A stretch of 60,158 nt of DNA from Balneolales bacterium. GTDB taxonomy: Bacteria > Bacteroidota > Rhodothermia > Balneolales > HLUCCA01. The stretch lies in the NCBI GenBank assembly GCA_024711145.1, contig JANJTJ010000001.1:1-60158 (forward strand). Reading direction: 5' to 3'. The first letter of the stretch is position 1. Every line of letters starts with the position of its first letter. The notes beneath the pieces were generated by a model. It was not told where the DNA came from and ran no database searches. It saw nothing but the letters and a program-made list of their open reading frames with translations. The position numbers and the translations under genes are program-made. Positions 1 through 17,331 of this stretch are shown one piece after another.

Positions 1-13
1 AAAGAAGCCCAGC

Positions 14-144
14 CACTAACAGCGGTTTGGCAAAAGTGGCGGTTCAGTGCTTCGTATGACAGTTTTTCGTAAATTTGAAGTGTGTGCTTCGTATGAACAT
101 TTGTGGTTAAATCGCCACCTTCGCCAAGCCGCAAAACGTTAGCG
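14..144 (+). repeat. attC-like imperfect inverted-repeat element, copy 1
   Basis: Ends are CACTAAC (14-20) and GTTAGCG (138-144). Arms GCGGTTTGGC/GCCAAGCCGC and AAAAGTGGCG/CGCCACCTTC pair imperfectly. Internal 13-bp direct repeat GTGCTTCGTATGA at 47-59 and 84-96. Homologous to 2174-2268. Confidence 0.75.
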
Positions 145-192
145 GTCATTGTAGGACGACCAGAAACAACATCAAAAATTGACAAATAGAAT

Positions 193-675
193 ATGGCAAA
201 AAGTAAATTAATGGAGATGCACAATGTAGGCATTGTTGTAGAATCACTTGACAATGCAATTGCATTCTTCACAGAAATTGGGTTGACACTTGAAGGGCGA
301 ATGATGGTTGAAGGCGAATGGGCAGGACGAGTAACTGGGCTTGGTGACCAATCTGTTGAAGTAGCTATGATGGTTACTCCTGACGGACACTCCCGACTTG
401 AACATTCACAATTTCTGCGTCCGCAAACGATAGCTGACCACAGAACGAATCCTGTGAACTCACTTGGTTATCTAAGAGTAATGTTCAGGGTTGACAACCT
501 TGACGAGCTTTTGGGCAGACTTGAAAAACACGGTGCTAAAGTCGTAGATGAAGTTGTTCAGTTTGGTGACGTTTATAGACTCTGCTACATTCGTGGAGTA
601 GAGGGATTACTTATTGGTTTAGCTGAACAAATTGGTAGCAAAACAGCGACAGACATTTTAGAGGACAATAATTGA
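193..675 (+). CDS. VOC/glyoxalase family protein
   Basis: HNVGIVVESLDNAIAFF...GL.LE start and RLCYIRGVEGLLIGLAE end, typical of VOC proteins. Confidence 0.85.
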   Translation: MAKSKLMEMHNVGIVVESLDNAIAFFTEIGLTLEGRMMVEGEWAGRVTGLGDQSVEVAMMVTPDGHSRLEHSQFLRPQTIADHRTNPVNSLGYLRVMFRVDNLDELLGRLEKHGAKVVDEVVQFGDVYRLCYIRGVEGLLIGLAEQIGSKTATDILEDNN

Positions 676-752
676 AAAAACAACGACACTGCAATCATTA
701 AGCAGACACACTAAAATCATATTCAATCTGCTACAATTGAATGAATGAAAAC

Positions 753-1115
753 TTAGGCCTTTTTCAACACAGACTTTCTATGTTCTATTCCCCATTCTAT
801 CATTTTATCTAGGACTTCTGTGATTTGTTTTCCTGTTTCAGACAACTCATATTCAACAGATACAGGTGTTGTGTCATATACCGTTCTGACCAACACGCCA
901 TTTAATTCCAATTCTTTCAGTTCTTTGCTCAACATTCTGGGTGTAATTTTTGGAATATTGCGTTGAATATCGGTAAACCGTTTTTTACCAAACAGTATTG
1001 ATCCTAAGATTGGCAACTTCCATTTACCACTAATAACATTGAGCGTATCGTTGATGTTTAGCACATATTCAACGGGACAAGACTTAATCTCTTTTAAACT
1101 TAGCTGCTTTTTCAT
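753..1115 (-). CDS. HxlR (MarR/DUF24) family winged-helix transcriptional regulator
   Basis: N-terminal CPVE cysteine, GKWKLPIL, RFTDIQR, ITPRMLSKELKELE, PVSVEYELSETG. Confidence 0.92.
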   Translation of the reverse strand: MKKQLSLKEIKSCPVEYVLNINDTLNVISGKWKLPILGSILFGKKRFTDIQRNIPKITPRMLSKELKELELNGVLVRTVYDTTPVSVEYELSETGKQITEVLDKMIEWGIEHRKSVLKKA

Positions 1116-1131
1116 TTTCCTGACTTTTGTT

Positions 1132-1161
1132 ACTATACTTTAGTATAGCACTATACTTTAG
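1132..1161. promoter_or_regulatory. Putative HxlR-family operator
   Basis: Palindrome CTATAC-TTTA-GTATAG (1133-1148) and 12-bp direct repeat ACTATACTTTAG (1132-1143, 1150-1161) in the divergent intergenic gap. Confidence 0.6.
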
Positions 1162-1176
1162 GAAGCAAATATAGTG

Positions 1177-1184
1177 TATCTTTG
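1177..1184 (+). promoter_or_regulatory. Bacteroidota-type -7 promoter element TAnnTTTG
   Basis: TATCTTTG followed by an A-rich leader and ATG at 1212. Confidence 0.6.
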
Positions 1185-1211
1185 CAATTCACAATTAAAA
1201 AAAATAAAAAA

Positions 1212-2084
1212 ATGATTTTAGTAACAGGAGCAACAGGACATTTTGGAAAGGCAACCATTGACTTTCTATTAAAAAAGGGTATTTCAGCAAACAGCATTTC
1301 GGCTTTAGTAAGAGATGAGGCGAAAGCGGAAGACTTGAAAACAAAAGGCATTAACTTAAAAATTGGCGATTACGACAATTACGCTTCATTGGTAGAAGCA
1401 TTTAAAGGCGTTGACAAGTTGTTATTGGTTTCAAGTTCTGATGTTGTTAACCGTGGACAACAACACGAGAATGCAGTGAAGGCTGCTAAAGAAGCAGGTG
1501 TAAAACATATATTTTATACCAGTTTTGAGCGAAAAAACGATACCGAAACTTCACCTATTTACTTTCTTGCAAAATCGCATATCGACACAGAAAACCTAAT
1601 CAAGGCAAGTGGAATGACTTACACCATTTTTAAAAACAATCTTTATCTTGATGTGTTACCGATGTTTTTTGGAGAACAAGTTTTAACAACAGGTATATTT
1701 TTACCAGCAGGAGAGACAAAATCGGCTTTTGCTTTGCGTAATGATATGGCTGAAGCTACTGCCAGTGTATTGACAAGCGAAGGACACGAAAACAAAGCAT
1801 ATTCTTTAAGCAATACCGAAAGTGTATCGATACAAGAAATTGCTGAAGATTTAAGTGAAATAGTTGGTAAACAAATCAATTATGTAAGCCCGCCTAAAGA
1901 TATTTACGTGAAAACATTAACAGAAGCAGGCGTTCCAGCAGAATATGTTGGAATGTTTGCAGGTTTTGCCGAGGCTATTAAGCAAGGGGAATATTCAACT
2001 GAAAAAACAGATTTAGAAAATCTTTTAGGCAGAAAGCCAACGACAACAAAAGACTTCCTGAAAGTAGTTTACGCATCTAAATAA
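1212..2084 (+). CDS. NmrA-like/atypical SDR NAD(P)H oxidoreductase (QorB/YtfG-like)
   Basis: MILVTGATGHFG Rossmann motif, GVDKLLLVSS, AAKEAGVKHIFYTS, LENLLGRKPTT. Start taken at ATG 1212. Confidence 0.88.
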   Translation: MILVTGATGHFGKATIDFLLKKGISANSISALVRDEAKAEDLKTKGINLKIGDYDNYASLVEAFKGVDKLLLVSSSDVVNRGQQHENAVKAAKEAGVKHIFYTSFERKNDTETSPIYFLAKSHIDTENLIKASGMTYTIFKNNLYLDVLPMFFGEQVLTTGIFLPAGETKSAFALRNDMAEATASVLTSEGHENKAYSLSNTESVSIQEIAEDLSEIVGKQINYVSPPKDIYVKTLTEAGVPAEYVGMFAGFAEAIKQGEYSTEKTDLENLLGRKPTTTKDFLKVVYASK

Positions 2085-2105
2085 TATCTTTAAATTATGT
2101 TTTTT

Positions 2106-2142
2106 ATAGCGGACAGTTTTAGAACTGTTCGCTATTTTTTTT
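2106..2142 (+). terminator. Intrinsic terminator
   Basis: Stem ATAGCGGACAGTT/AACTGTTCGCTAT with a TTAG loop, followed by a T-run. Confidence 0.75.
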
Positions 2143-2173
2143 ATTCTACAACTCGACAGACAAAAACGCCAGC

Positions 2174-2268
2174 AGGTAACAGCAGTTTGGCAAAATGGCG
2201 GGTTCAGTGCTAAATTGAAAGTAAGTGCTTCAAAATCCGCCACTTAGCCAAGCTGCAAACCGTTAGCG
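2174..2268 (+). repeat. attC-like imperfect inverted-repeat element, copy 2
   Basis: AGGTAAC...GTTAGCG ends. Arms GCAGTTTGGC/GCCAAGCTGC show a compensatory change relative to copy 1. Central region is shorter. Confidence 0.75.
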
Positions 2269-2311
2269 CACCCACACCCTTACATTGAAGGCCTCACTAG
2301 AAGGCACGCTC

Positions 2312-2779
2312 ATGACTGCTCAAAAAATCACACCGTCGATCTGGGTTGAAACAACGGATGCCAAAGCGGTAGCCGATTATTATCTCTCGATATTTGCGGA
2401 TGGCAGGCTCAAGGAACACCATGCGTACACGAATCCGCCGGAAGCGGGTGGCGGGGCCTTCGAAACGGCGATCATCGAAATCGCCGGCATGGAATTGGGC
2501 ATTCTGGCGGCGGGTCCGTTTCAGAAGTTCAACGAGTCGGTCTCATTCGTCATCAACACGAAGGACCAGGCCGAAACGGATTATTTTTGGAATGCCCTGA
2601 CGGAAAACGGGGGCCAGGAAGGTTCTTGCGGATGGTGCACCGACAAATATGGACTGTCGTGGCAGGTGGTTCCGGTCGACTATTTTGCCCTGATCAACCA
2701 CGCCGACCCGAAGGTTCGGGAAAAGGCCATGAAGAACACGTTGCAGCAGAAGAAGATCATTCTGGATGAACTGAAATAG
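2312..2779 (+). CDS. VOC family protein (PhnB/3-demethylubiquinone-9 3-methyltransferase-like)
   Basis: QKITPSIW, FNESVSFVI, QAETDYFWNAL, CGWCTDKYGLSWQVVP. Confidence 0.88.
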   Translation: MTAQKITPSIWVETTDAKAVADYYLSIFADGRLKEHHAYTNPPEAGGGAFETAIIEIAGMELGILAAGPFQKFNESVSFVINTKDQAETDYFWNALTENGGQEGSCGWCTDKYGLSWQVVPVDYFALINHADPKVREKAMKNTLQQKKIILDELK

Positions 2780-2786
2780 GTCACGG

Positions 2787-3212
2787 ATGCACGCCAAAGC
2801 CGCCATACAGATCCGCAAGCCGATCGAAGAGGTATTCGAAGGCATCGTGGATCCGTCCATCCTCACCCGGTACTTCATATCGGAGAGCGACGGCCGCCTG
2901 GAGTCGGGGGTCACGCGCATGTGGGCGTTTCCCGAATTCGAAGGGGCGTTTCCGGTAGAGGTTGTGCGCGTGGAGGCGCCGCATACCATCGAATTCGTGT
3001 GGGACTCGGAAACGGTGGTCACCATCACCTTGGAAGCGCGCCCCGATGCCGGAACCGTGGTTCGGGTGGTGGAAGACGGCAAACCCGACACCCCCGAAGC
3101 CATCGAGTGGGCCATCGGCACCACCGAGGGTTGGGCCAACTTCCTGGCCTGCATGAAAGCCCACCTGGAATACGGCATCAACCTGCGCGCCGGCGCCTTC
3201 GACTTCCGCTAA
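2787..3212 (+). CDS. SRPBCC/AHSA1 domain protein
   Basis: IQIRKPIEEVFEGIVDP, GWANFLACMKAHLEYGINLR. Confidence 0.85.
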   Translation: MHAKAAIQIRKPIEEVFEGIVDPSILTRYFISESDGRLESGVTRMWAFPEFEGAFPVEVVRVEAPHTIEFVWDSETVVTITLEARPDAGTVVRVVEDGKPDTPEAIEWAIGTTEGWANFLACMKAHLEYGINLRAGAFDFR

Positions 3213-3240
3213 CCGTCTCCCGTTACCCGTCTCCCGTTAC
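3213..3240. repeat. Heptamer tandem repeat (CCGTCTC CCGTTAC)x2
   Basis: Directly visible; fills the gap between convergent genes. Confidence 0.8.
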
Positions 3241-3243
3241 TCC

Positions 3244-5301
3244 CTACCTCAACTCCCGCTCGAGTACTTCGATCTGGTCGCGGATACGGGCGGCTTCCTC
3301 GTATTCCAGGTTGCGGGCCGCTGTGAGCATGGCCGTGCGCAGGTGCTCGAGCAAGGCGTCTTTGTCGTCGAAGACCACTTCCTGCATGGCCGGGTTGGGT
3401 TTGTACCGCAGCCCGTCGTCGGCCGCCCGCACGTAGCTGAGCGCGGGGGAGTTGTCGCCGTAATCGAAGGGTTTGTCGAGGTCGATTTTCTGGGTGCTGA
3501 TGAGGGCCGGATCGACCAGGGGCTTGAGCTCCTTGACGATGGTCTGTGGCGTGATGCCGTGCTCGAGGTTATACGCCCGCTGGATCTCGCGCCGACGGTC
3601 GGTTTCTTCGATCACTTTCCGCATGCTGTCGGTCACTTTGTCGGCATAGAGGATGGCCAGGCCGTCCGCGTTCCGCGCCGCCCGCCCCGTGATCTGCATG
3701 AGGCTGGTCTGGCTCCGAAGGAAGCCCTCTTTGTCGGCGTCGAGCACCGCTACCAGGCTCAGTTCGGGGATGTCTATGCCTTCGCGCAGCAGGTTGATGC
3801 CTACGAGCACGTCGAAGTCGCCCCGCCGGAACCGGTACAGGATTTCGATGCGCTCGATGGCGTCCAGGTCGCTGTGCATGTAGGCCGCCCGGATGCCCAG
3901 ATTCCGAAGGTATTCGCTCAACTCCTCGCTCATGCGTTTGGTGAGGGTGAGCGCCAATACCCGCTCCCGCTTTTCGATGCGGATGCGGATTTCTTCGATG
4001 AGGTCGTCGACCTGGTTCTTGAGGGGACGCACCTCGATGCGGGGTTCCATGAGTCCCGTGGGGCGGATGATCTGCTCTACGAAGGCGCCTTCAGACTTCA
4101 CCAATTCGTAGTCGGCGGGGGTGGCGCTCACGAAAATGCCCTGGGGCACCAGGCCTTCCCATTCTTCGAAGGTGAGGGGGCGGTTGTCCATGGCCGAGGG
4201 CAGGCGGAATCCGTGTTCCACCAGGGCCAGTTTGCGGCTGCGGTCGCCCCCGTACATGGCCCCGATCTGCGGTATGGTCTGGTGGCTTTCGTCCACCACC
4301 ACGAGGAAATCCTCGGGGAAATAATCCATGAGGCAGTAGGGACGCTCCCCGGGCTTGCGGGCGGCCAGGTACCGCGAGTAGTTCTCGATGCCGGAGCAGT
4401 ACCCGATTTCCTGGATCATCTCCAGATCGAACTGGGTGCGTTGCTCCAGGCGGGCCGCTTCCAGGAATTTCTCTTCTTCGCGGAGCTGTTCCAGGCGCTG
4501 GTTCAGCTCGTTGCGGATGAGGATGATGGATTCGTCGAGGCGGGCCTTGGTGGTGACGTAATGGCTGGCCGGATAGATCTGGAACTGCTGTACCCGCTCG
4601 CGTTCCTTGCCGGTATCCGGGTCGAAGAGGGTCATCTTCTCGATTTCGTCGCCCCAGAACTGGATGCGCAACGCGTACTCGGAATAGGCCGGTACCAGGT
4701 CCACCACGTCGCCCCGCACCCGGAAGGTGCTGCGCGAGAATTCAGCGTCGTTGCGGGTGTAGTGCAGGTCCACCAGGTCGTAGAGCAGCTTGGACCGGCT
4801 GATGTGCTTGCCCTCGTGCAGGCTGATGACCATGGCCGCGTATTCGCTGGGCGACCCGATGCCATAGATGCAACTTACGCTTGATACGATGATGACATCG
4901 CGCCGGCCGGAAAGCATGCTGCTGGTGGCCCGCAGGCGCAGGCGCTGGATCTCTTCGTTGATGGCCAGGTCTTTTTCGATGTACTTGTCCTGGGCCACCA
5001 TGTAGGCCTCGGGCTGGTAGTAATCGTAATAGCTGATGAAGAACTCCACAGCCGCATCGGGGAAGAAATCGCTCAACTCCCGATACAACTGGGCCGCCAG
5101 GGTCTTGTTATGCGACATCACCAGGGTGGGGCGGTTCACCTGTTGGATCACTTCGGCCACGGTGCGGGTCTTGCCCGAGCCGGTAATGCCTAATAGGGTT
5201 TGAAAACGCACCCCCGCCTTCAGACCGGAAACCAGGGCTTCTATGGCTTTGGGTTGGTCCCCGGCGGGTTGATAGGGCGATACGAGGCGGAAATCGGACA
5301 T
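3244..5301 (-). CDS. uvrB: Excinuclease ABC subunit B
   Basis: GDQPKAI, GITGSGKT, HNKTLAAQL, YYDYYQPEAY, DESH, C-terminal UVR motif (LEYEEAARIRD). Confidence 0.98.
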   Translation of the reverse strand: MSDFRLVSPYQPAGDQPKAIEALVSGLKAGVRFQTLLGITGSGKTRTVAEVIQQVNRPTLVMSHNKTLAAQLYRELSDFFPDAAVEFFISYYDYYQPEAYMVAQDKYIEKDLAINEEIQRLRLRATSSMLSGRRDVIIVSSVSCIYGIGSPSEYAAMVISLHEGKHISRSKLLYDLVDLHYTRNDAEFSRSTFRVRGDVVDLVPAYSEYALRIQFWGDEIEKMTLFDPDTGKERERVQQFQIYPASHYVTTKARLDESIILIRNELNQRLEQLREEEKFLEAARLEQRTQFDLEMIQEIGYCSGIENYSRYLAARKPGERPYCLMDYFPEDFLVVVDESHQTIPQIGAMYGGDRSRKLALVEHGFRLPSAMDNRPLTFEEWEGLVPQGIFVSATPADYELVKSEGAFVEQIIRPTGLMEPRIEVRPLKNQVDDLIEEIRIRIEKRERVLALTLTKRMSEELSEYLRNLGIRAAYMHSDLDAIERIEILYRFRRGDFDVLVGINLLREGIDIPELSLVAVLDADKEGFLRSQTSLMQITGRAARNADGLAILYADKVTDSMRKVIEETDRRREIQRAYNLEHGITPQTIVKELKPLVDPALISTQKIDLDKPFDYGDNSPALSYVRAADDGLRYKPNPAMQEVVFDDKDALLEHLRTAMLTAARNLEYEEAARIRDQIEVLERELR

Positions 5302-5306
5302 AGGAA

Positions 5307-5717
5307 TCAGTCGGGAGTGAGAGACAACAATTCCCAGAGTTGGCGTGGGTTCATGATCCTGATTCCGGCTGATTCGAAGTCAAGGTCCAGTAAATCCCGA
5401 TCGCCGGAGACCAACACATCGGCACCAGAAACACGGGCCGAGGCGAGTACCCAGCGGTCGTCTGGGTCATTTGCAGGAATATCTGCCGGAATATCCGGGA
5501 GAGGAACTATGGTATGCTTCCGCAGATAGCGGTCGATATCGTCCACATGCGAACCGGGCATGTTCAGTTTCGCACGTAAGATGCGCGTCAATTCCGAAAG
5601 ATTGAATTCTCCGGTAACCAACTCATGCCGAGAAATGATCAGTTGGAACAGATCGGCTGAGAGACCCCGAGTGGCGAAGGCGCTGAAAAGCACATTCGTG
5701 TCCAAAAATACCCTCAC
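5307..5717 (-). CDS. PIN-domain toxin (VapC-like)
   Basis: RVFLDTNVLFSA, DPDDRWVLASA, LVSGDRDLL. GTG start overlaps the antitoxin stop (GTGA). Confidence 0.88.
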   Translation of the reverse strand: MRVFLDTNVLFSAFATRGLSADLFQLIISRHELVTGEFNLSELTRILRAKLNMPGSHVDDIDRYLRKHTIVPLPDIPADIPANDPDDRWVLASARVSGADVLVSGDRDLLDLDFESAGIRIMNPRQLWELLSLTPD

Positions 5718-5932
5718 GAAATCAGGCGCCAAGCATCATCATCGGTCAGAAGACCCTGTGCTTCTGCGAAGGGGAGTACCCGATTTCGTAGCGATTGGAA
5801 CGATTCGATGTGCAGTTGGCGGCGCAATGCATCACGTACGAGGTCGCTTTTTGCCCTGCCGGTCTGTTTCGAGACCGTTTCGAGCAGTGCGACGAGTTCT
5901 TCATCGAGGCGAATGGATAGGGTGTCTGCCAT
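5714..5932 (-). CDS. Ribbon-helix-helix (CopG-like) antitoxin
   Basis: TLSIRLDEEL...L...SKQTGRAKSDLVRDALRR; small gene directly upstream of the PIN gene. Confidence 0.85.
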   Translation of the reverse strand: MADTLSIRLDEELVALLETVSKQTGRAKSDLVRDALRRQLHIESFQSLRNRVLPFAEAQGLLTDDDAWRLIS

Positions 5933-6001: not shown

Positions 6002-7129
6002 ATGCCCGAATCATCCCTTACCGCCCATCGTGACCGGATCGACGCCATCGATCGGCAGATTCTGGACCTCCTGCGCGAGCGCAACGAGGTGGTGAAAGGG
6101 GTGTTGGCGACCAAAATCGCTCACAAATTGCCCATTTATGTGGCCGGGCGCGAAGAGCGCAAGGTGCAGGCCTTCCGCGAAGACGCCCTCCGGCGGGACC
6201 TCGACCCCGACTGGGCCGAGGATTTCCTGCGCATGATCATGAGCGCCTCGCGTGCCAGCCAGAGCACCACTACGTTTCCCATGGCCACCGTGGAGCCGCG
6301 TACCTGGCTGTTCGTGGGCGGCCGGGGCGGCATGGGCACCCTGTTCGCCCGGTATGCCGAGCAATCGGGGCACGAGGTGCGCATATTGGACCGGGACGAT
6401 TGGGACCGGGTGGCCGAACTGGCCGCCGGTGTGCACGTGGCGGTGGTCACCGTGCCCATCCATGTGACCGAAGCCGTAGTGCGCCGGTTGGCGCCGCATC
6501 TGCCGGCCACCGCCATCCTGGCCGATTTCACCTCGAACAAAGCCGATGTGTTGGCCGCCATGCTGGCCGCCCACGCCGGCCCTGTGCTGGGGCTGCACCC
6601 CATGCACGGCCCCGACGTGCAGAACCTCTCCAAACAGCTCCTGCTGGTGAGTCCCGGCCGCGACGCCACCGCCGCCGAGTGGGTGCTCAACCAGTTCGCG
6701 CTTTGGGGCATGCGGTTGGTAAGCGTGGATCCAGATCGCCACGACCGTGCCATGCACCTCATCCAGGGGGTACGCCACTACATGGCCCTACTGCATGGCA
6801 GTTTTCTGAAAGCGCAAGGTCTGAAACCGGAAGAGATCCTCGATTTCTCGAGCCCCATCTACCGCGCCGAGCTCATGATGACCGGCCGGATCTTCGCACA
6901 AGACGCCGGCCTGTACGCCGACATCGTCTTTTCCTCGGCCGAACGTCGGGCCTTGCTTCTGGCCTTTCTGGAGCACCATGCCGCCTTGGCTCGCCTGGTG
7001 GAAGCCGACGACAAAGCCGGATTCGTGCGCGAGTTCGAAGCCATATCCTCCTTTTTCGGCGAGTTCGCCGAAACGGCCCTCCGCGAAAGCGGATACCTCA
7101 TCCACCGGCTGGCCGACCGGTTCGCATAA
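6002..7129 (+). CDS. tyrA: Bifunctional chorismate mutase/prephenate dehydrogenase
   Basis: RDRIDAIDRQILDLL chorismate mutase domain, GGRGGMG Rossmann motif, GLHPMHGP, HDRAMHLIQG. Confidence 0.9.
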   Translation: MPESSLTAHRDRIDAIDRQILDLLRERNEVVKGVLATKIAHKLPIYVAGREERKVQAFREDALRRDLDPDWAEDFLRMIMSASRASQSTTTFPMATVEPRTWLFVGGRGGMGTLFARYAEQSGHEVRILDRDDWDRVAELAAGVHVAVVTVPIHVTEAVVRRLAPHLPATAILADFTSNKADVLAAMLAAHAGPVLGLHPMHGPDVQNLSKQLLLVSPGRDATAAEWVLNQFALWGMRLVSVDPDRHDRAMHLIQGVRHYMALLHGSFLKAQGLKPEEILDFSSPIYRAELMMTGRIFAQDAGLYADIVFSSAERRALLLAFLEHHAALARLVEADDKAGFVREFEAISSFFGEFAETALRESGYLIHRLADRFA

Positions 7130-7140
7130 TCAAACCCTGA

Positions 7141-8429
7141 ATGGAAATCCTCATCCTCACGGTCCTGCTCCTGGTGAACGGAGTGTTCGCCATGTACGAG
7201 ATCGCGTTGGTATCCTCGTCCAAATCCCGCCTCGAAGCCCTGGCCCAAAAAGGCAGCAGCACCGCCCGAACGGTACTGCACGTGTTGGAAGAACCTGAAA
7301 AGATGCTCTCGGCCATCCAAGTCGGCATCACCCTCATCGGCATCGTGTCGGGTGCGTACGGCGGGGTGGCCCTGGCCGACGACGTGAAACCCTTCTTCGA
7401 AGGATTCCCGGCCATGGCACCCTATGCCGGCCAATTGGCACTGGCCTCCGTCATTTCCATCATCACCTATTTCTCGTTGGTAGTGGGCGAACTGGTGCCC
7501 AAATCGGTGGCCTTGAGCGCCCCAGAGCGCATCGTACTGGCACTTACGCCCTTCATGCTCGTGCTCACCCGCATCGCCTATCCCTTCGTGTGGCTGTTGA
7601 GCGTGAGCACCAAAGGCGTGAACCGCCTCATCGGGGTGAAAGCCAGCGACGAGCGGGCCATGACCGAAGAAGAGCTCAAATTCCTGCTCCAGCAGAGTTC
7701 CGACAGCGGCGTGATCGACCAGCAGGAATCGGACCTCATCAAAGAAGTATTCCGCTTCAGCGACAAACGGGCCAGCGAGATCATGACCCATCGGAAAGAC
7801 GTGGTGTACCTCACGCCCGACATGTCGGTGGAGACCATCCTGGACATCCTCCGCCGCGAACCCTATAGCAAGTACCCGGTTTGCGAAGAAAGCATGGATG
7901 ATGTGATGGGGATCGTGACCGTGAAAGACCTGCTGCTGGCCGGCCGGTCCGAACACGGGTTCGACCTGCGCGAGCTGGCATCGCCTCCCTTGCTCATTCC
8001 CGAGAACGTATCGGCAGGCAAGGCCTTGGAGCATTTCCGCAACAAGAAGAACGGATTCGGCATCATCATCGACGAGTACGGATCCGTGCAAGGCATCCTC
8101 ACCCTGCACGACCTGGCCGAAACCCTGCTCGGCGACATCCCCGAAGAGACCGAAGAAATCGAAACCGAGATCGTTCGCCGGGCCGACGGTTCCTGGTTGG
8201 TGGACGGTTCCATGAACATCTGGGACTTCCTGGAAGAAGCCGGCATGGGCGATGCGGAAGACCTCGAGGAGGGCGATTTCAACACCGTGGGCGGGTTCGC
8301 CATGTTCAAGCTGGACAAAGTGCCCACCGAAGGCGACCTGTTCGCCTACCGGAACCTGAAATTCGAAATCGTGGACATGGACAAGAGCCGGGTGGACAAG
8401 CTCTTGGTCACCCGAACAGACCCGGACGA

Positions 8430-14541: not shown

Positions 14542-15589
14542 GGGCGTCCACCACTTTTTTGACGTCCTGAGCCGCATCCAGGCGGCAGACCATGAGGGTG
14601 TCGTCGGTTTCCACCAGGGCGATACCATCCAACCCGACCAGCGCCACAAAGCGGTCGCTGGAGGTTTTCACCAGGCAATTGGCCGAGCCGATGAACAGGG
14701 CTCCGGCGCTTCGGTCCACGTTTCCGGCCGGGTCTTTGCGGCCGAGTTCATGTACCGCCGTCCAGCTTCCCACATCGCTCCAGCCGAAATCTCCGGGTAC
14801 CACCCGCACATGGCCGGCTTTCTCCATGATGCCGTAATCGATGGAGATGGAGTTGACAGACCGGTAGAAGGTGTCGACGGCGGTGGTGAACCCGGGGTCG
14901 GCGCGGTCGGGCAGGGCCTGGGCCAGCACATGCATGTCGGGCAGGAGGCGGGCGAATTCGGCCTCCACGGTGTCGGCCCGCCAGATGAACATGCCGCTGT
15001 TCCATAGGAAATCGCCCGAAGCGAGGAACCGGAGCGCCGTGTCCAGATCGGGTTTTTCGGCGAAGGCTTTCACCCGATGGGCCGCGAAGGCCCCGCGCCG
15101 CTCGGTGGCCCGTTCGTCGGCCTGGATGTACCCGTAGCCGGTTTCGGGCCGGTGCGGGGTGATGCCGATGGTGACCAGGTCGGTGCCGGCCTCGGCTTGT
15201 TCGAACGCGGCATCCACTACGGAGAGGAATACCTCGGGCCGGGCGATGTGGTGGTCGGCCGGCAGCACCAGCATGGTGGCGTCGGCATCGCGCAGGCGCA
15301 GGATACGGGCCGCCAAAGCCACGCAGGGGGCCGTGTTTTTGGCCACCGGTTCGCCGATGATGTTCTCGGCCGGCAGATCGGGCAGCTGCTCCCGCACCAA
15401 GGCCACATAGGTCGCATTGGTGACCACCAGGATGCGGTCGGGGGTGAACCGGGACCGGATGCGGTCCACGGTCATTTGTATCATGCTCCGTTCGCCCAAC
15501 AGGTTCAGGAACTGTTTGGGCTTGGCGGAACGGCTTTCGGGCCAAAAGCGCGAACCCACGCCACCGGCCATGATAACGGCATATCTCAT
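14510..15589 (-). CDS. manC: Mannose-1-phosphate guanylyltransferase
   Basis: IMAGGVGSRFWP.SR..KPKQF, NTAP, PETGYGYI, EKP, WNSGMF, WSDVGSW. Confidence 0.94.
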   Translation of the reverse strand: MRYAVIMAGGVGSRFWPESRSAKPKQFLNLLGERSMIQMTVDRIRSRFTPDRILVVTNATYVALVREQLPDLPAENIIGEPVAKNTAPCVALAARILRLRDADATMLVLPADHHIARPEVFLSVVDAAFEQAEAGTDLVTIGITPHRPETGYGYIQADERATERRGAFAAHRVKAFAEKPDLDTALRFLASGDFLWNSGMFIWRADTVEAEFARLLPDMHVLAQALPDRADPGFTTAVDTFYRSVNSISIDYGIMEKAGHVRVVPGDFGWSDVGSWTAVHELGRKDPAGNVDRSAGALFIGSANCLVKTSSDRFVALVGLDGIALVETDDTLMVCRLDAAQDVKKVVDALKDSPKDHLR

Positions 15590-16657: not shown

Positions 16658-17331
16658 TCCCGGAACCGGTAACCGACCCCCTTCACCGTTTCGATGTATT
16701 CCTCACCCAGCTTCTCACGGATCTTTCGGATGTGGACGTCCACGGTGCGGTCGATCACGAACACGTTGCTTCCCCATACTTCGTTGAGCAGGGTCTGCCG
16801 GTCGATCACCTTGCCTTTGCGCGCGGCCAGGAACCACAACACCTCGAATTCCTTGCGGGGCAACTGGAATTCGGTGGCGCCCCGGAGAACCAGGTACCGG
16901 TCCCGGTTGATGACCAGGTCGTGCGCGAGGATCTCGTTGCCCGGCTCCACCGCCTCGCCGATGCGGCGCAGCACGGTCTTTATGCGGCTCACCAGTTTGG
17001 CGGTGCTGATGGGTTTCTGCAGGAAATCGTCGGCTCCCACATCCAACCCTTCGATCTCGGTCTCTTCGTCGGCCCGCGCGGTGAGGAACATGACGGGGGT
17101 TTTGCGCAGGTCGGTACTTTCCTTGAGCTGACGCACCACGTCGATGCCGGTCATGCGCGGCATCATGATGTCCAGAATGATGAGGTCGGGATGATGCTTC
17201 CGTGCCAGACGCAACCCTTCCTGGCCGTTCTCGGCCGTAAGGACGTTGTAGCCCTCACGCTGGAGGTTGTATTCGATGAGTTCGAGCAGGTCGGCCTCGT
17301 CGTCCACAACCAGGATGGTTTCCTTCGCCAC
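16654..17331 (-). CDS. OmpR/PhoB family response regulator
   Basis: ILVVDDE, DIMMP, GADDFLQKP, RTVDVHIRKIREK, TVKGVGY. GTG start at 17331 chosen. Confidence 0.92.
   Translation of the reverse strand: MAKETILVVDDEADLLELIEYNLQREGYNVLTAENGQEGLRLARKHHPDLIILDIMMPRMTGIDVVRQLKESTDLRKTPVMFLTARADEETEIEGLDVGADDFLQKPISTAKLVSRIKTVLRRIGEAVEPGNEILAHDLVINRDRYLVLRGATEFQLPRKEFEVLWFLAARKGKVIDRQTLLNEVWGSNVFVIDRTVDVHIRKIREKLGEEYIETVKGVGYRFRE

Follow-up and report, generated by a model that had tools for sequence, protein, structure and literature searches.

Integron-like cassette sites at an array end in a Balneolales genome and the short tyrosine recombinase that most likely serves their family

Contig C56 of a Balneolales bacterium (GenBank assembly GCA_024711145.1, contig JANJTJ010000001.1) begins with a block of AT-rich DNA framed by two related hairpin elements in the same orientation. 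The question raised by this locus is whether these hairpins are recombination sites of gene cassettes, comparable to the attC sites of integrons, and, if so, which recombinase acts on them. The window, that is, the whole stretch of 60,158 nucleotides that was analysed, comprises the first bases of this contig and starts with its base 1; it belongs to a metagenome-assembled genome (MAG) of 2.30 Mb in 138 contigs that has a GC content of 62.8% and is 90% complete. Our results strongly support that the two hairpins, here called site a and site b, are sites at which gene cassettes recombine and that they lie where an integron-like array ends. The sites are of the attC type, and their family is most likely served by a short tyrosine recombinase that lacks the insertion typical of integron integrases (IntI), a combined reading to which we assign a probability of roughly 0.7.

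Site a occupies positions 14-144 and site b positions 2174-2268 of the forward strand, in agreement with a preliminary description made from the sequence alone, and covariance models scored them with 134.7-155.6 and 87.2-102.6 bits, respectively. Such models made from site copies, R1 and R2, were used on the genome, on its relatives, and on recombinase loci. The sites are bounded by the cores CACTAAC (14-20) and GTTAGCG (138-144) in site a, and AGGTAAC (2174-2180) and GTTAGCG (2262-2268) in site b, and both have the layout that had been described, in which the core is followed by 1 nt, two arms (the first of 10 bp), the centre, the two arms once more, 5 nt, and the other core. The two copies are 78% identical in their 5' halves and 81% identical in their 3' halves. 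The covariation claimed for the 10-bp arm was upheld as one compensatory pair (GCGG/CCGC in site a, GCAG/CTGC in site b) between copies whose centres are unequal in length, with 117 nt from core to core in site a and 81 nt in site b, the last site of the array, in which the centre is shortened. The GC content is 33-44% up to about position 2200 and 52-63% just beyond site b, and the GTT core of site b (2262-2264, forward strand) lies at the boundary between AT-rich cassette DNA and GC-rich DNA. The single-strand folding z-scores of the window sites were modest (-1.1 to -2.9), so that folding energy alone would not carry the case, which is carried instead by the specificity of the models. The centre of site a, about 70 nt long, contains an imperfect direct repeat of 27 nt (47-73 and 84-110, spaced 37 nt, 78% identical).

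The models found exactly four matches in the assembly, all with E-values of 1e-16 or better, and two covariance models gave no further copy in the assembly up to E = 10. Besides sites a and b, the matches were C94:259-402 and C94:1843-1986, located on a contig that is built like C56, with an AT-rich block that runs from the contig start, ends in a site, and is followed by GC-rich DNA. A scan of window positions 1-3000 against Rfam gave nothing near any gathering score. Since C56 starts at site a, the array has been cut by assembly, and its expected continuation upstream is supported by a contig of the public run X1 that extends before position 16. The public-run evidence used here consists of contigs (Logan), which drop rare forms, from four of the listed runs, namely from X1, probably the source sample, and from X2, X15, and X17, which belong to other studies.

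Among 151 genomes sampled from the same order, 64 carry sites of this family, which are about 143 nt long, are recognized by R1, and form same-strand arrays. In an alignment of 45 sites, which was fitted to the model structure and comes from related and hence not independent genomes, 86.4% of the cells were paired, compared with 60.5% in shuffled alignments, none of 500 of which reached the observed value. Compensatory changes were present in 23 of 26 pairs of this alignment, and its covariation score was 0.563, compared with 0.165 after shuffling and at most 0.106 when the partners were slid. The AAC/GTT pairs were invariant in 42-43 of 44 rows, and inverted cores are combined with paired arms as in attC sites. 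The length lies between 141 and 147 nt in 40 of the 45 sites. Conservation extends to the length of the centre and, in part, to its sequence, unlike in classical attC sites, where the centre is variable.

For comparison, 22 canonical sites were located in six IntI-adjacent arrays of the order with a hairpin scanner of our own, which is strand-blind, gives false matches in GC-rich coding DNA, and was applied only for this purpose. All 22 have one to four extra-base gaps at fixed places in the 5' arm, and they have a spacer of 2 nt after the 5' core and of 6 nt before the 3' core. The unequal spacers of 1 and 5 nt beside the cores, which the preliminary description had taken as a mark of difference from canonical attC sites, therefore do not distinguish the window sites, because this asymmetry is shared by the canonical, IntI-linked sites in the order. 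What does differ is that in the window's family the bulged bases of canonical sites are replaced by conserved mismatches. No internal gap was flagged by a script in 26 of 42 family sites, and in 7 of the 16 flagged sites the printed alignments, read by eye, had gaps only at the unequal spacers; by this reading, the arms of 33 of 42 sites are free of bulges, and the other nine have a single-base bulge at varying places. At one fixed position, 39 of 45 sites have an A opposite a C, and a second A/C and one T/G mismatch also recur; read on the opposite strand, each A/C mismatch turns into a G-T wobble.

For cassettes that are circles cut open at the core, the expectation is that the six bases after GTT are complementary to the 5' core of the following site and not to that of their own site. 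Full complementarity (6/6) to the next 5' core was found in 14 of 20 neighbour pairs, including 12 of 13 in the array of the relative G051, and full complementarity to the own 5' core in only 1 of 26 family sites. In the canonical arrays, used as a control set that is surely incomplete because sites were missed by the scanner, the corresponding values were 8/16 and 0/21. Exceptions in the relative G027 (locus L044, G027:C33) are due to five identical gene-less mini-cassettes of about 130 nt (16717-16849, the copy at the array head, 14592-14724, 7067-7199, 5611-5743, and 4354-4486), which have a short hairpin site of another type, and when these are counted, the four junctions that follow them also fit the rule. 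The mini-cassette may be selfish and empty, or it may carry a promoter or a small RNA. Boundary complementarity of this kind characterizes cassettes that are circular and open at their GTT core, and it places the cut within or just before GTT, with no finer resolution.

The boundary rule in the arrays of relatives, together with run contigs that hold the predicted partner ends of the window cassettes, bears out the proposal that the hairpins are cassette recombination sites. Cassette 1 (139-686, forward strand) runs from the TT of the site a core and carries a glyoxalase/VOC open reading frame (ORF; 193-675, Pfam), and its first 16 nt are the same as the start of a cassette on C94. As both VOC-type cassettes share their first 16 bases from the core and the sites preceding them differ in the arms, the boundary is placed at the core. 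No site was found behind the VOC gene in the window, the cassette's own site having been lost in C56. In the relative G017, a gene 76% identical to the VOC gene is followed by its own site, and a contig of X1 continues beyond position 686 into a site whose 5' core exactly complements the start of cassette 1 and which is thus the missing site. The body of cassette 2 (683-2261, forward strand) lacks about 18 nt of its own start and encodes an HxlR-family regulator (753-1115, reverse strand) and an NmrA-like NAD(P)-binding protein (1212-2084, forward strand), both identified with Pfam. The X15 sequence that precedes position 683 terminates in a site with a 3' core exactly complementary to the 5' core of site b, and this supplies the missing start of cassette 2. 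At the fusion point of the two cassettes (680-686), 7 nt are common to the end of cassette 1 and to the inside of the start of cassette 2; X15 has a loose end before 683, X1 has a loose end behind 686, and record 3 of X1 (657-868) spans the fusion.

The copies of segment 683-2176 in X15 and X17 differ in 22 and 24 letters, respectively, over 1,494 bases, contain 2 and 11 gaps, and have sites at their flanks. Variants at the core junctions were also seen: in a contig of X2, cassette 1 is absent and the core of site a is followed immediately by cassette 2, and another contig of X1 leaves site b after position 2265 into different AT-rich DNA. Two joints that might be taken for excision, 140 to 2178 in X2 and 148 to 2177 in X17, have sides shorter than 30 nt and were read as cross-mapping of other family members, and a return from 2176 to 17 in X15 and X17, which could be mistaken for a circle, was read as cassette 2 being closed by a site that has a long centre as site a does. 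X15 and X17, with their nearly identical copies of 683-2176, are labelled as single-organism runs. The pair of HxlR and NmrA-like genes recurs as a cassette module in the arrays of the relatives G027, G112, and G021, with about 65% identity.

Having characterized the sites, we sought the enzyme that serves them. The two window sites lie 2.0 kb apart, and, as stated in the preliminary description for the window, no integrase was found, either in the contig or in the genome as a whole; TIGR02249 detected no canonical IntI in the source genome and gave only two Xer-like genes with 80 and 56 bits (cut-off 265). In relatives, arrays adjoin a tyrosine recombinase of 274-280 amino acids (aa), found in 42 of the 151 genomes, that shares 33% identity with a canonical IntI from the order and in which about 42 residues of the IntI insertion are missing. 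This short recombinase scored 216 bits with TIGR02249, below the cut-off of 265, and 237 bits with NF040815, above the cut-off of 220, and it shares with IntI a C-terminal KSP-x-(D/E)-x-L motif that is absent from the XerD-like protein of the source genome. In a quick tree rooted with the Xer proteins of the source genome as outgroup, six canonical IntI, all from one order, formed one clade (support 100) among insertion-less relatives, the deep nodes being weak and gain and loss of the insertion not being distinguished. The distinct recombinase that had been postulated for the sites is supported in the relatives, where an insertion-less IntI/XerA-like enzyme adjoins the sites and canonical IntI does not, and not in the source genome, which has neither.

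The junction between this recombinase and its array also resembles that of an integron. In three of six loci, an exact 9-nt match to the predicted start of the first cassette lies upstream of the start codon of the recombinase, at a distance of 85-86 nt, and directly follows a conserved stretch that, judged from its position in these relatives, may be the counterpart of attI, and in two further loci the match lies at 210 and 499 nt. Fragments of recombinase genes (ORFs of 112-219 aa) adjoin sites at G001:C2, G002:C14, G003:C17, and G028:C1, including members of the family of the source genome, which suggests decaying platforms.

The alternative that survives best, although we consider it improbable, is that the window is an ordinary integron remnant, an integrase-less cluster of attC sites (CALIN), in which normal attC sites are served by canonical IntI and the short recombinase only happens to lie nearby or is of the Xer type and has a different function. 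A CALIN is defined by at least two attC sites according to the IntegronFinder model with no integrase nearby, as also described in 10.1101/2024.07.02.601686, and integrons are reported from Chlorobi, Ignavibacteriae, and Salinibacter ruber (PMC9024848). In the order studied here, canonical IntI scores above the cut-off in 85 of 151 genomes (30 of 61 in a separate count), sites occur together with canonical IntI and without the short recombinase in 15 genomes, and the architecture and the boundary rule equal those of canonical arrays. Proximity argues against this alternative, since in none of the 11 genomes that have both on one contig are a site and canonical IntI less than 20 kb apart, whereas 19 of the 42 genomes with the short recombinase have a listed site at most 15 kb from it on the same contig, and two more have weaker, shorter matches. 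The two site types are also separated by the models: R1 gave only 17 and 14 bits on eight canonical IntI loci, and R2 gave two weak matches (25 and 20 bits) on eight such loci compared with 40 matches across 15 short-recombinase loci. The bulges found in 22/22 canonical sites and missing from the arms of most family sites, the conserved junction of the first cassette at 85-86 nt in three loci, and eight genomes that have arrays and the short recombinase but no canonical IntI likewise speak against canonical IntI as the cognate enzyme. At the genome level, the table of sites and short recombinase (31/33/11/76) has an odds ratio of 6.5, compared with 1.24 for sites and canonical IntI, and any p-value for these tables is inflated by kinship of the genomes.

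Several observations weigh against our assignment of the sites to the short recombinase, or against parts of the cassette model. The short recombinase was not found in the 90% complete source genome, and, as canonical IntI is missing there as well, the link rests on relatives. No short recombinase was seen in 33 of the 64 site-bearing genomes, which, beyond those with canonical IntI only, include 18 with neither enzyme; conversely, 11 of the 42 short-recombinase genomes have no listed site, and canonical IntI could act in trans on sites of the family. In a sequence comparison with solved structures, the best match of the short recombinase was archaeal XerA (147.5 bits, compared with 130.9 bits for IntI4), so that the enzyme appears to be about as close to XerA as to IntI4. 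The attI-like match was not found in L045, one of the six loci. The folding advantage of the bottom strand is modest, being present in only 33 of 44 sites and averaging 1.8 kcal/mol. In the window itself, the boundary score of the neighbouring sites a and b is only 3/6, a value that is explained only via the contigs of other runs, and neither the circular 139-2262 junction that the preliminary description had pointed to nor a precise-excision joint was seen in the run contigs, which drop rare forms. Lastly, the sites may already count as ordinary attC sites, and hence as a CALIN, under IntegronFinder.

An assembly chimera, in which AT-rich blocks of another organism were joined to a GC-rich genome via a shared site, is far less probable still. 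The genome is a binned assembly, both AT-rich blocks stand at contig starts, and site b continues in X1 also into other AT-rich DNA; against this, record 6 of X1 (2105-2448), a Logan contig, crosses the junction between AT-rich and GC-rich DNA at site b with three differing letters and one gap, and two separate contigs, C56 and C94, are arranged alike. The bridging is not fully independent evidence, because X1 is probably the source sample. A non-cassette repeat, whether a hairpin of the repetitive extragenic palindromic (REP) or miniature inverted-repeat transposable element (MITE) kind, a structured small RNA, or a terminator behind genes, would agree with the conserved, fixed-length centre with its internal repeat and with the position behind gene 3' ends, and is largely refuted by a genome with only four copies, all on one strand at array ends and not many and scattered in either orientation, by the same-strand arrays beside a recombinase in relatives, by the lack of an Rfam match, and by the boundary rule and the presence or absence of cassettes at the core, which it leaves unexplained.

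We therefore favour an array of cassettes over these alternatives. The system would be a variant integron, of which the window holds a recombinase-less array end with one fused cassette, a view that is strongly supported for the cassette sites and most likely for the enzyme. The window sites would mark the last two cassettes of the array, each of them a once-circular unit opened at GTT whose first bases pair with the 5' core of the site at its own far end. Cassette 1 with its VOC gene would have lost its site and become fused to cassette 2 with its HxlR and NmrA-like genes, and such AT-rich cassettes were probably drawn from a shared pool into a GC-rich host. Integrons recombine the folded bottom strand, with resolution by replication, and for the sites of this family such a mode is hinted at only indirectly, by cores that meet only on folding and by the greater stability of the bottom strand in most sites. 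The sites would be recombined as a folded strand by the short IntI/XerA-like enzyme, whose catalysis and use of folded single strands we infer, and the strand might be chosen via the mismatches. The recombinase of the source genome itself may be unassembled or absent.

Outside the order, the matches listed include at least 80 loci of recombinase relatives. R2 had 51 matches in 23 of 80 loci among the matches listed, and 50 of these 51 point away from the recombinase gene, lying either divergent upstream or co-oriented downstream. The carriers among the matches listed belong mostly to the Bacteroidota and also to the Calditrichota and Ignavibacteriota, with MAGs from Bacteroidales, Chitinophagales, Calditrichales, Ignavibacteriota, Spirochaetota, and Patescibacteria, and with the cultured Flavobacteriia and Cytophagia Flavobacterium aciduliphilum DSM 25663, Aquiflexum sp. 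TKW24L, Flavobacteriaceae bacterium S0862, and Jejudonia soesokkakensis CCUG 63830. Co-oriented recombinases (L052, L053, L055, L070, L075, L076, L087, L122, and others) have N-terminal extensions of 63-290 aa, in which no Pfam family was found in the seven that were searched.

Whether a second, parallel kind of integron, with mismatch-marked hairpins and without the I2 insertion, is widespread in the Bacteroidota and neighbouring phyla is a proposition for which we see even odds. The bulged bases and the I2 helix are described as the basis of strand choice and as blocking a second exchange in PMC4792948, and are treated as the basis of single-strand attC recombination in PMC7790495. PMC8138268 mentions a subgroup of 'integron-like' recombinases whose insertion is not fully conserved, lists of integron-bearing phyla are given in PMC8618304, and no report linking cassette arrays to an insertion-less integrase was found in open-licence PMC papers and bioRxiv. 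The family described here obeys the cassette rule of integrons without bulges and travels with a recombinase without the I2 helix. If the proposition is true, folded-strand cassette recombination does not need the I2 insertion, which the field treats as the key integron innovation, and many clusters filed as integrase-less would have a cognate enzyme; the cultured carriers make the question directly testable.

The genes carried in the window cassettes and on C94 are of small accessory kinds, as is usual for cassettes, and the two AT-rich islands of the genome would be explained as captured cassettes. C94 encodes, according to Pfam, the C-terminus of a cut LinB-like nucleotidyltransferase, a glyoxalase, a RibD_C protein, and a YjbR protein, and its block of three ORFs is regarded as one cassette since the boundary rule is matched at 5/6 positions. 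The cut ORF (C94 3-254) matches PF21418, a C-terminal domain like that of lincosamide nucleotidyltransferases, and is possibly a resistance-type cassette gene.

Beyond site b, the GC-rich flank up to the end of uvrB (2269-3243, forward strand) is given as context, and cassette status is not claimed for it. It contains a 3-dmu-9_3-mt/PhnB-like ORF (2312-2779) and an AHSA1/SRPBCC-like ORF (2787-3212), both identified with Pfam, and R2 found no sites in it. In ten relatives of the family of the source genome, the match is limited to the uvrB part of the flank, and the PhnB-like and SRPBCC ORFs do not lie beside uvrB; a further match, to the first of the two ORFs and located on a different contig, was found only in G010 (C49). 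No site was found beside uvrB in the seven family relatives scanned. The position of the array is thus particular to the source genome among the relatives searched, and the two ORFs could be old cassettes without sites or genome-specific genes.

Compared with known systems, the short recombinase resembles XerA and XerC-XerD in being a simple tyrosine recombinase without the integron insertion. Modules of the Xer/dif type, such as the pdif modules of Acinetobacter plasmids, have short duplex sites in which a central spacer is flanked by two arms that bind recombinase. The sites described here are unlike these in being hairpins of about 143 nt in one orientation whose cores meet only on folding, and in the window the conserved cores lie 81-117 nt apart and are joined by covarying stems.

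The similarity to sedentary chromosomal integrons and CALINs, for example that of Vibrio cholerae with its uniform Vibrio cholerae repeats (VCR), is more extensive. Shared features are foldable direct repeats with AAC...GTT cores that are uniform in length and sequence, cassettes circularly permuted at GTT, a recombinase with an attI-like junction at the array head, small accessory genes, and the occurrence of recombinase-less clusters. The system differs from them in a recombinase that lacks the IntI insertion and stays under the TIGR02249 cut-off, in conserved mismatches (the fixed A opposite C in 39/45 sites) in place of bulges, in cassettes that are often multi-gene (three ORFs on C94 and five in one cassette of G027), and in the Bacteroidia recombinases that are co-oriented with the array and N-terminally extended. 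The canonical integrons of the same order share with the window's family unequal core spacers (2/6 nt in the former and 1/5 nt here), the boundary rule, and AT-rich cassettes, whereas their sites are bulged in all cases and barely recognized by R1 and R2. The presence of canonical and variant systems in one order offers a natural side-by-side comparison of the two.

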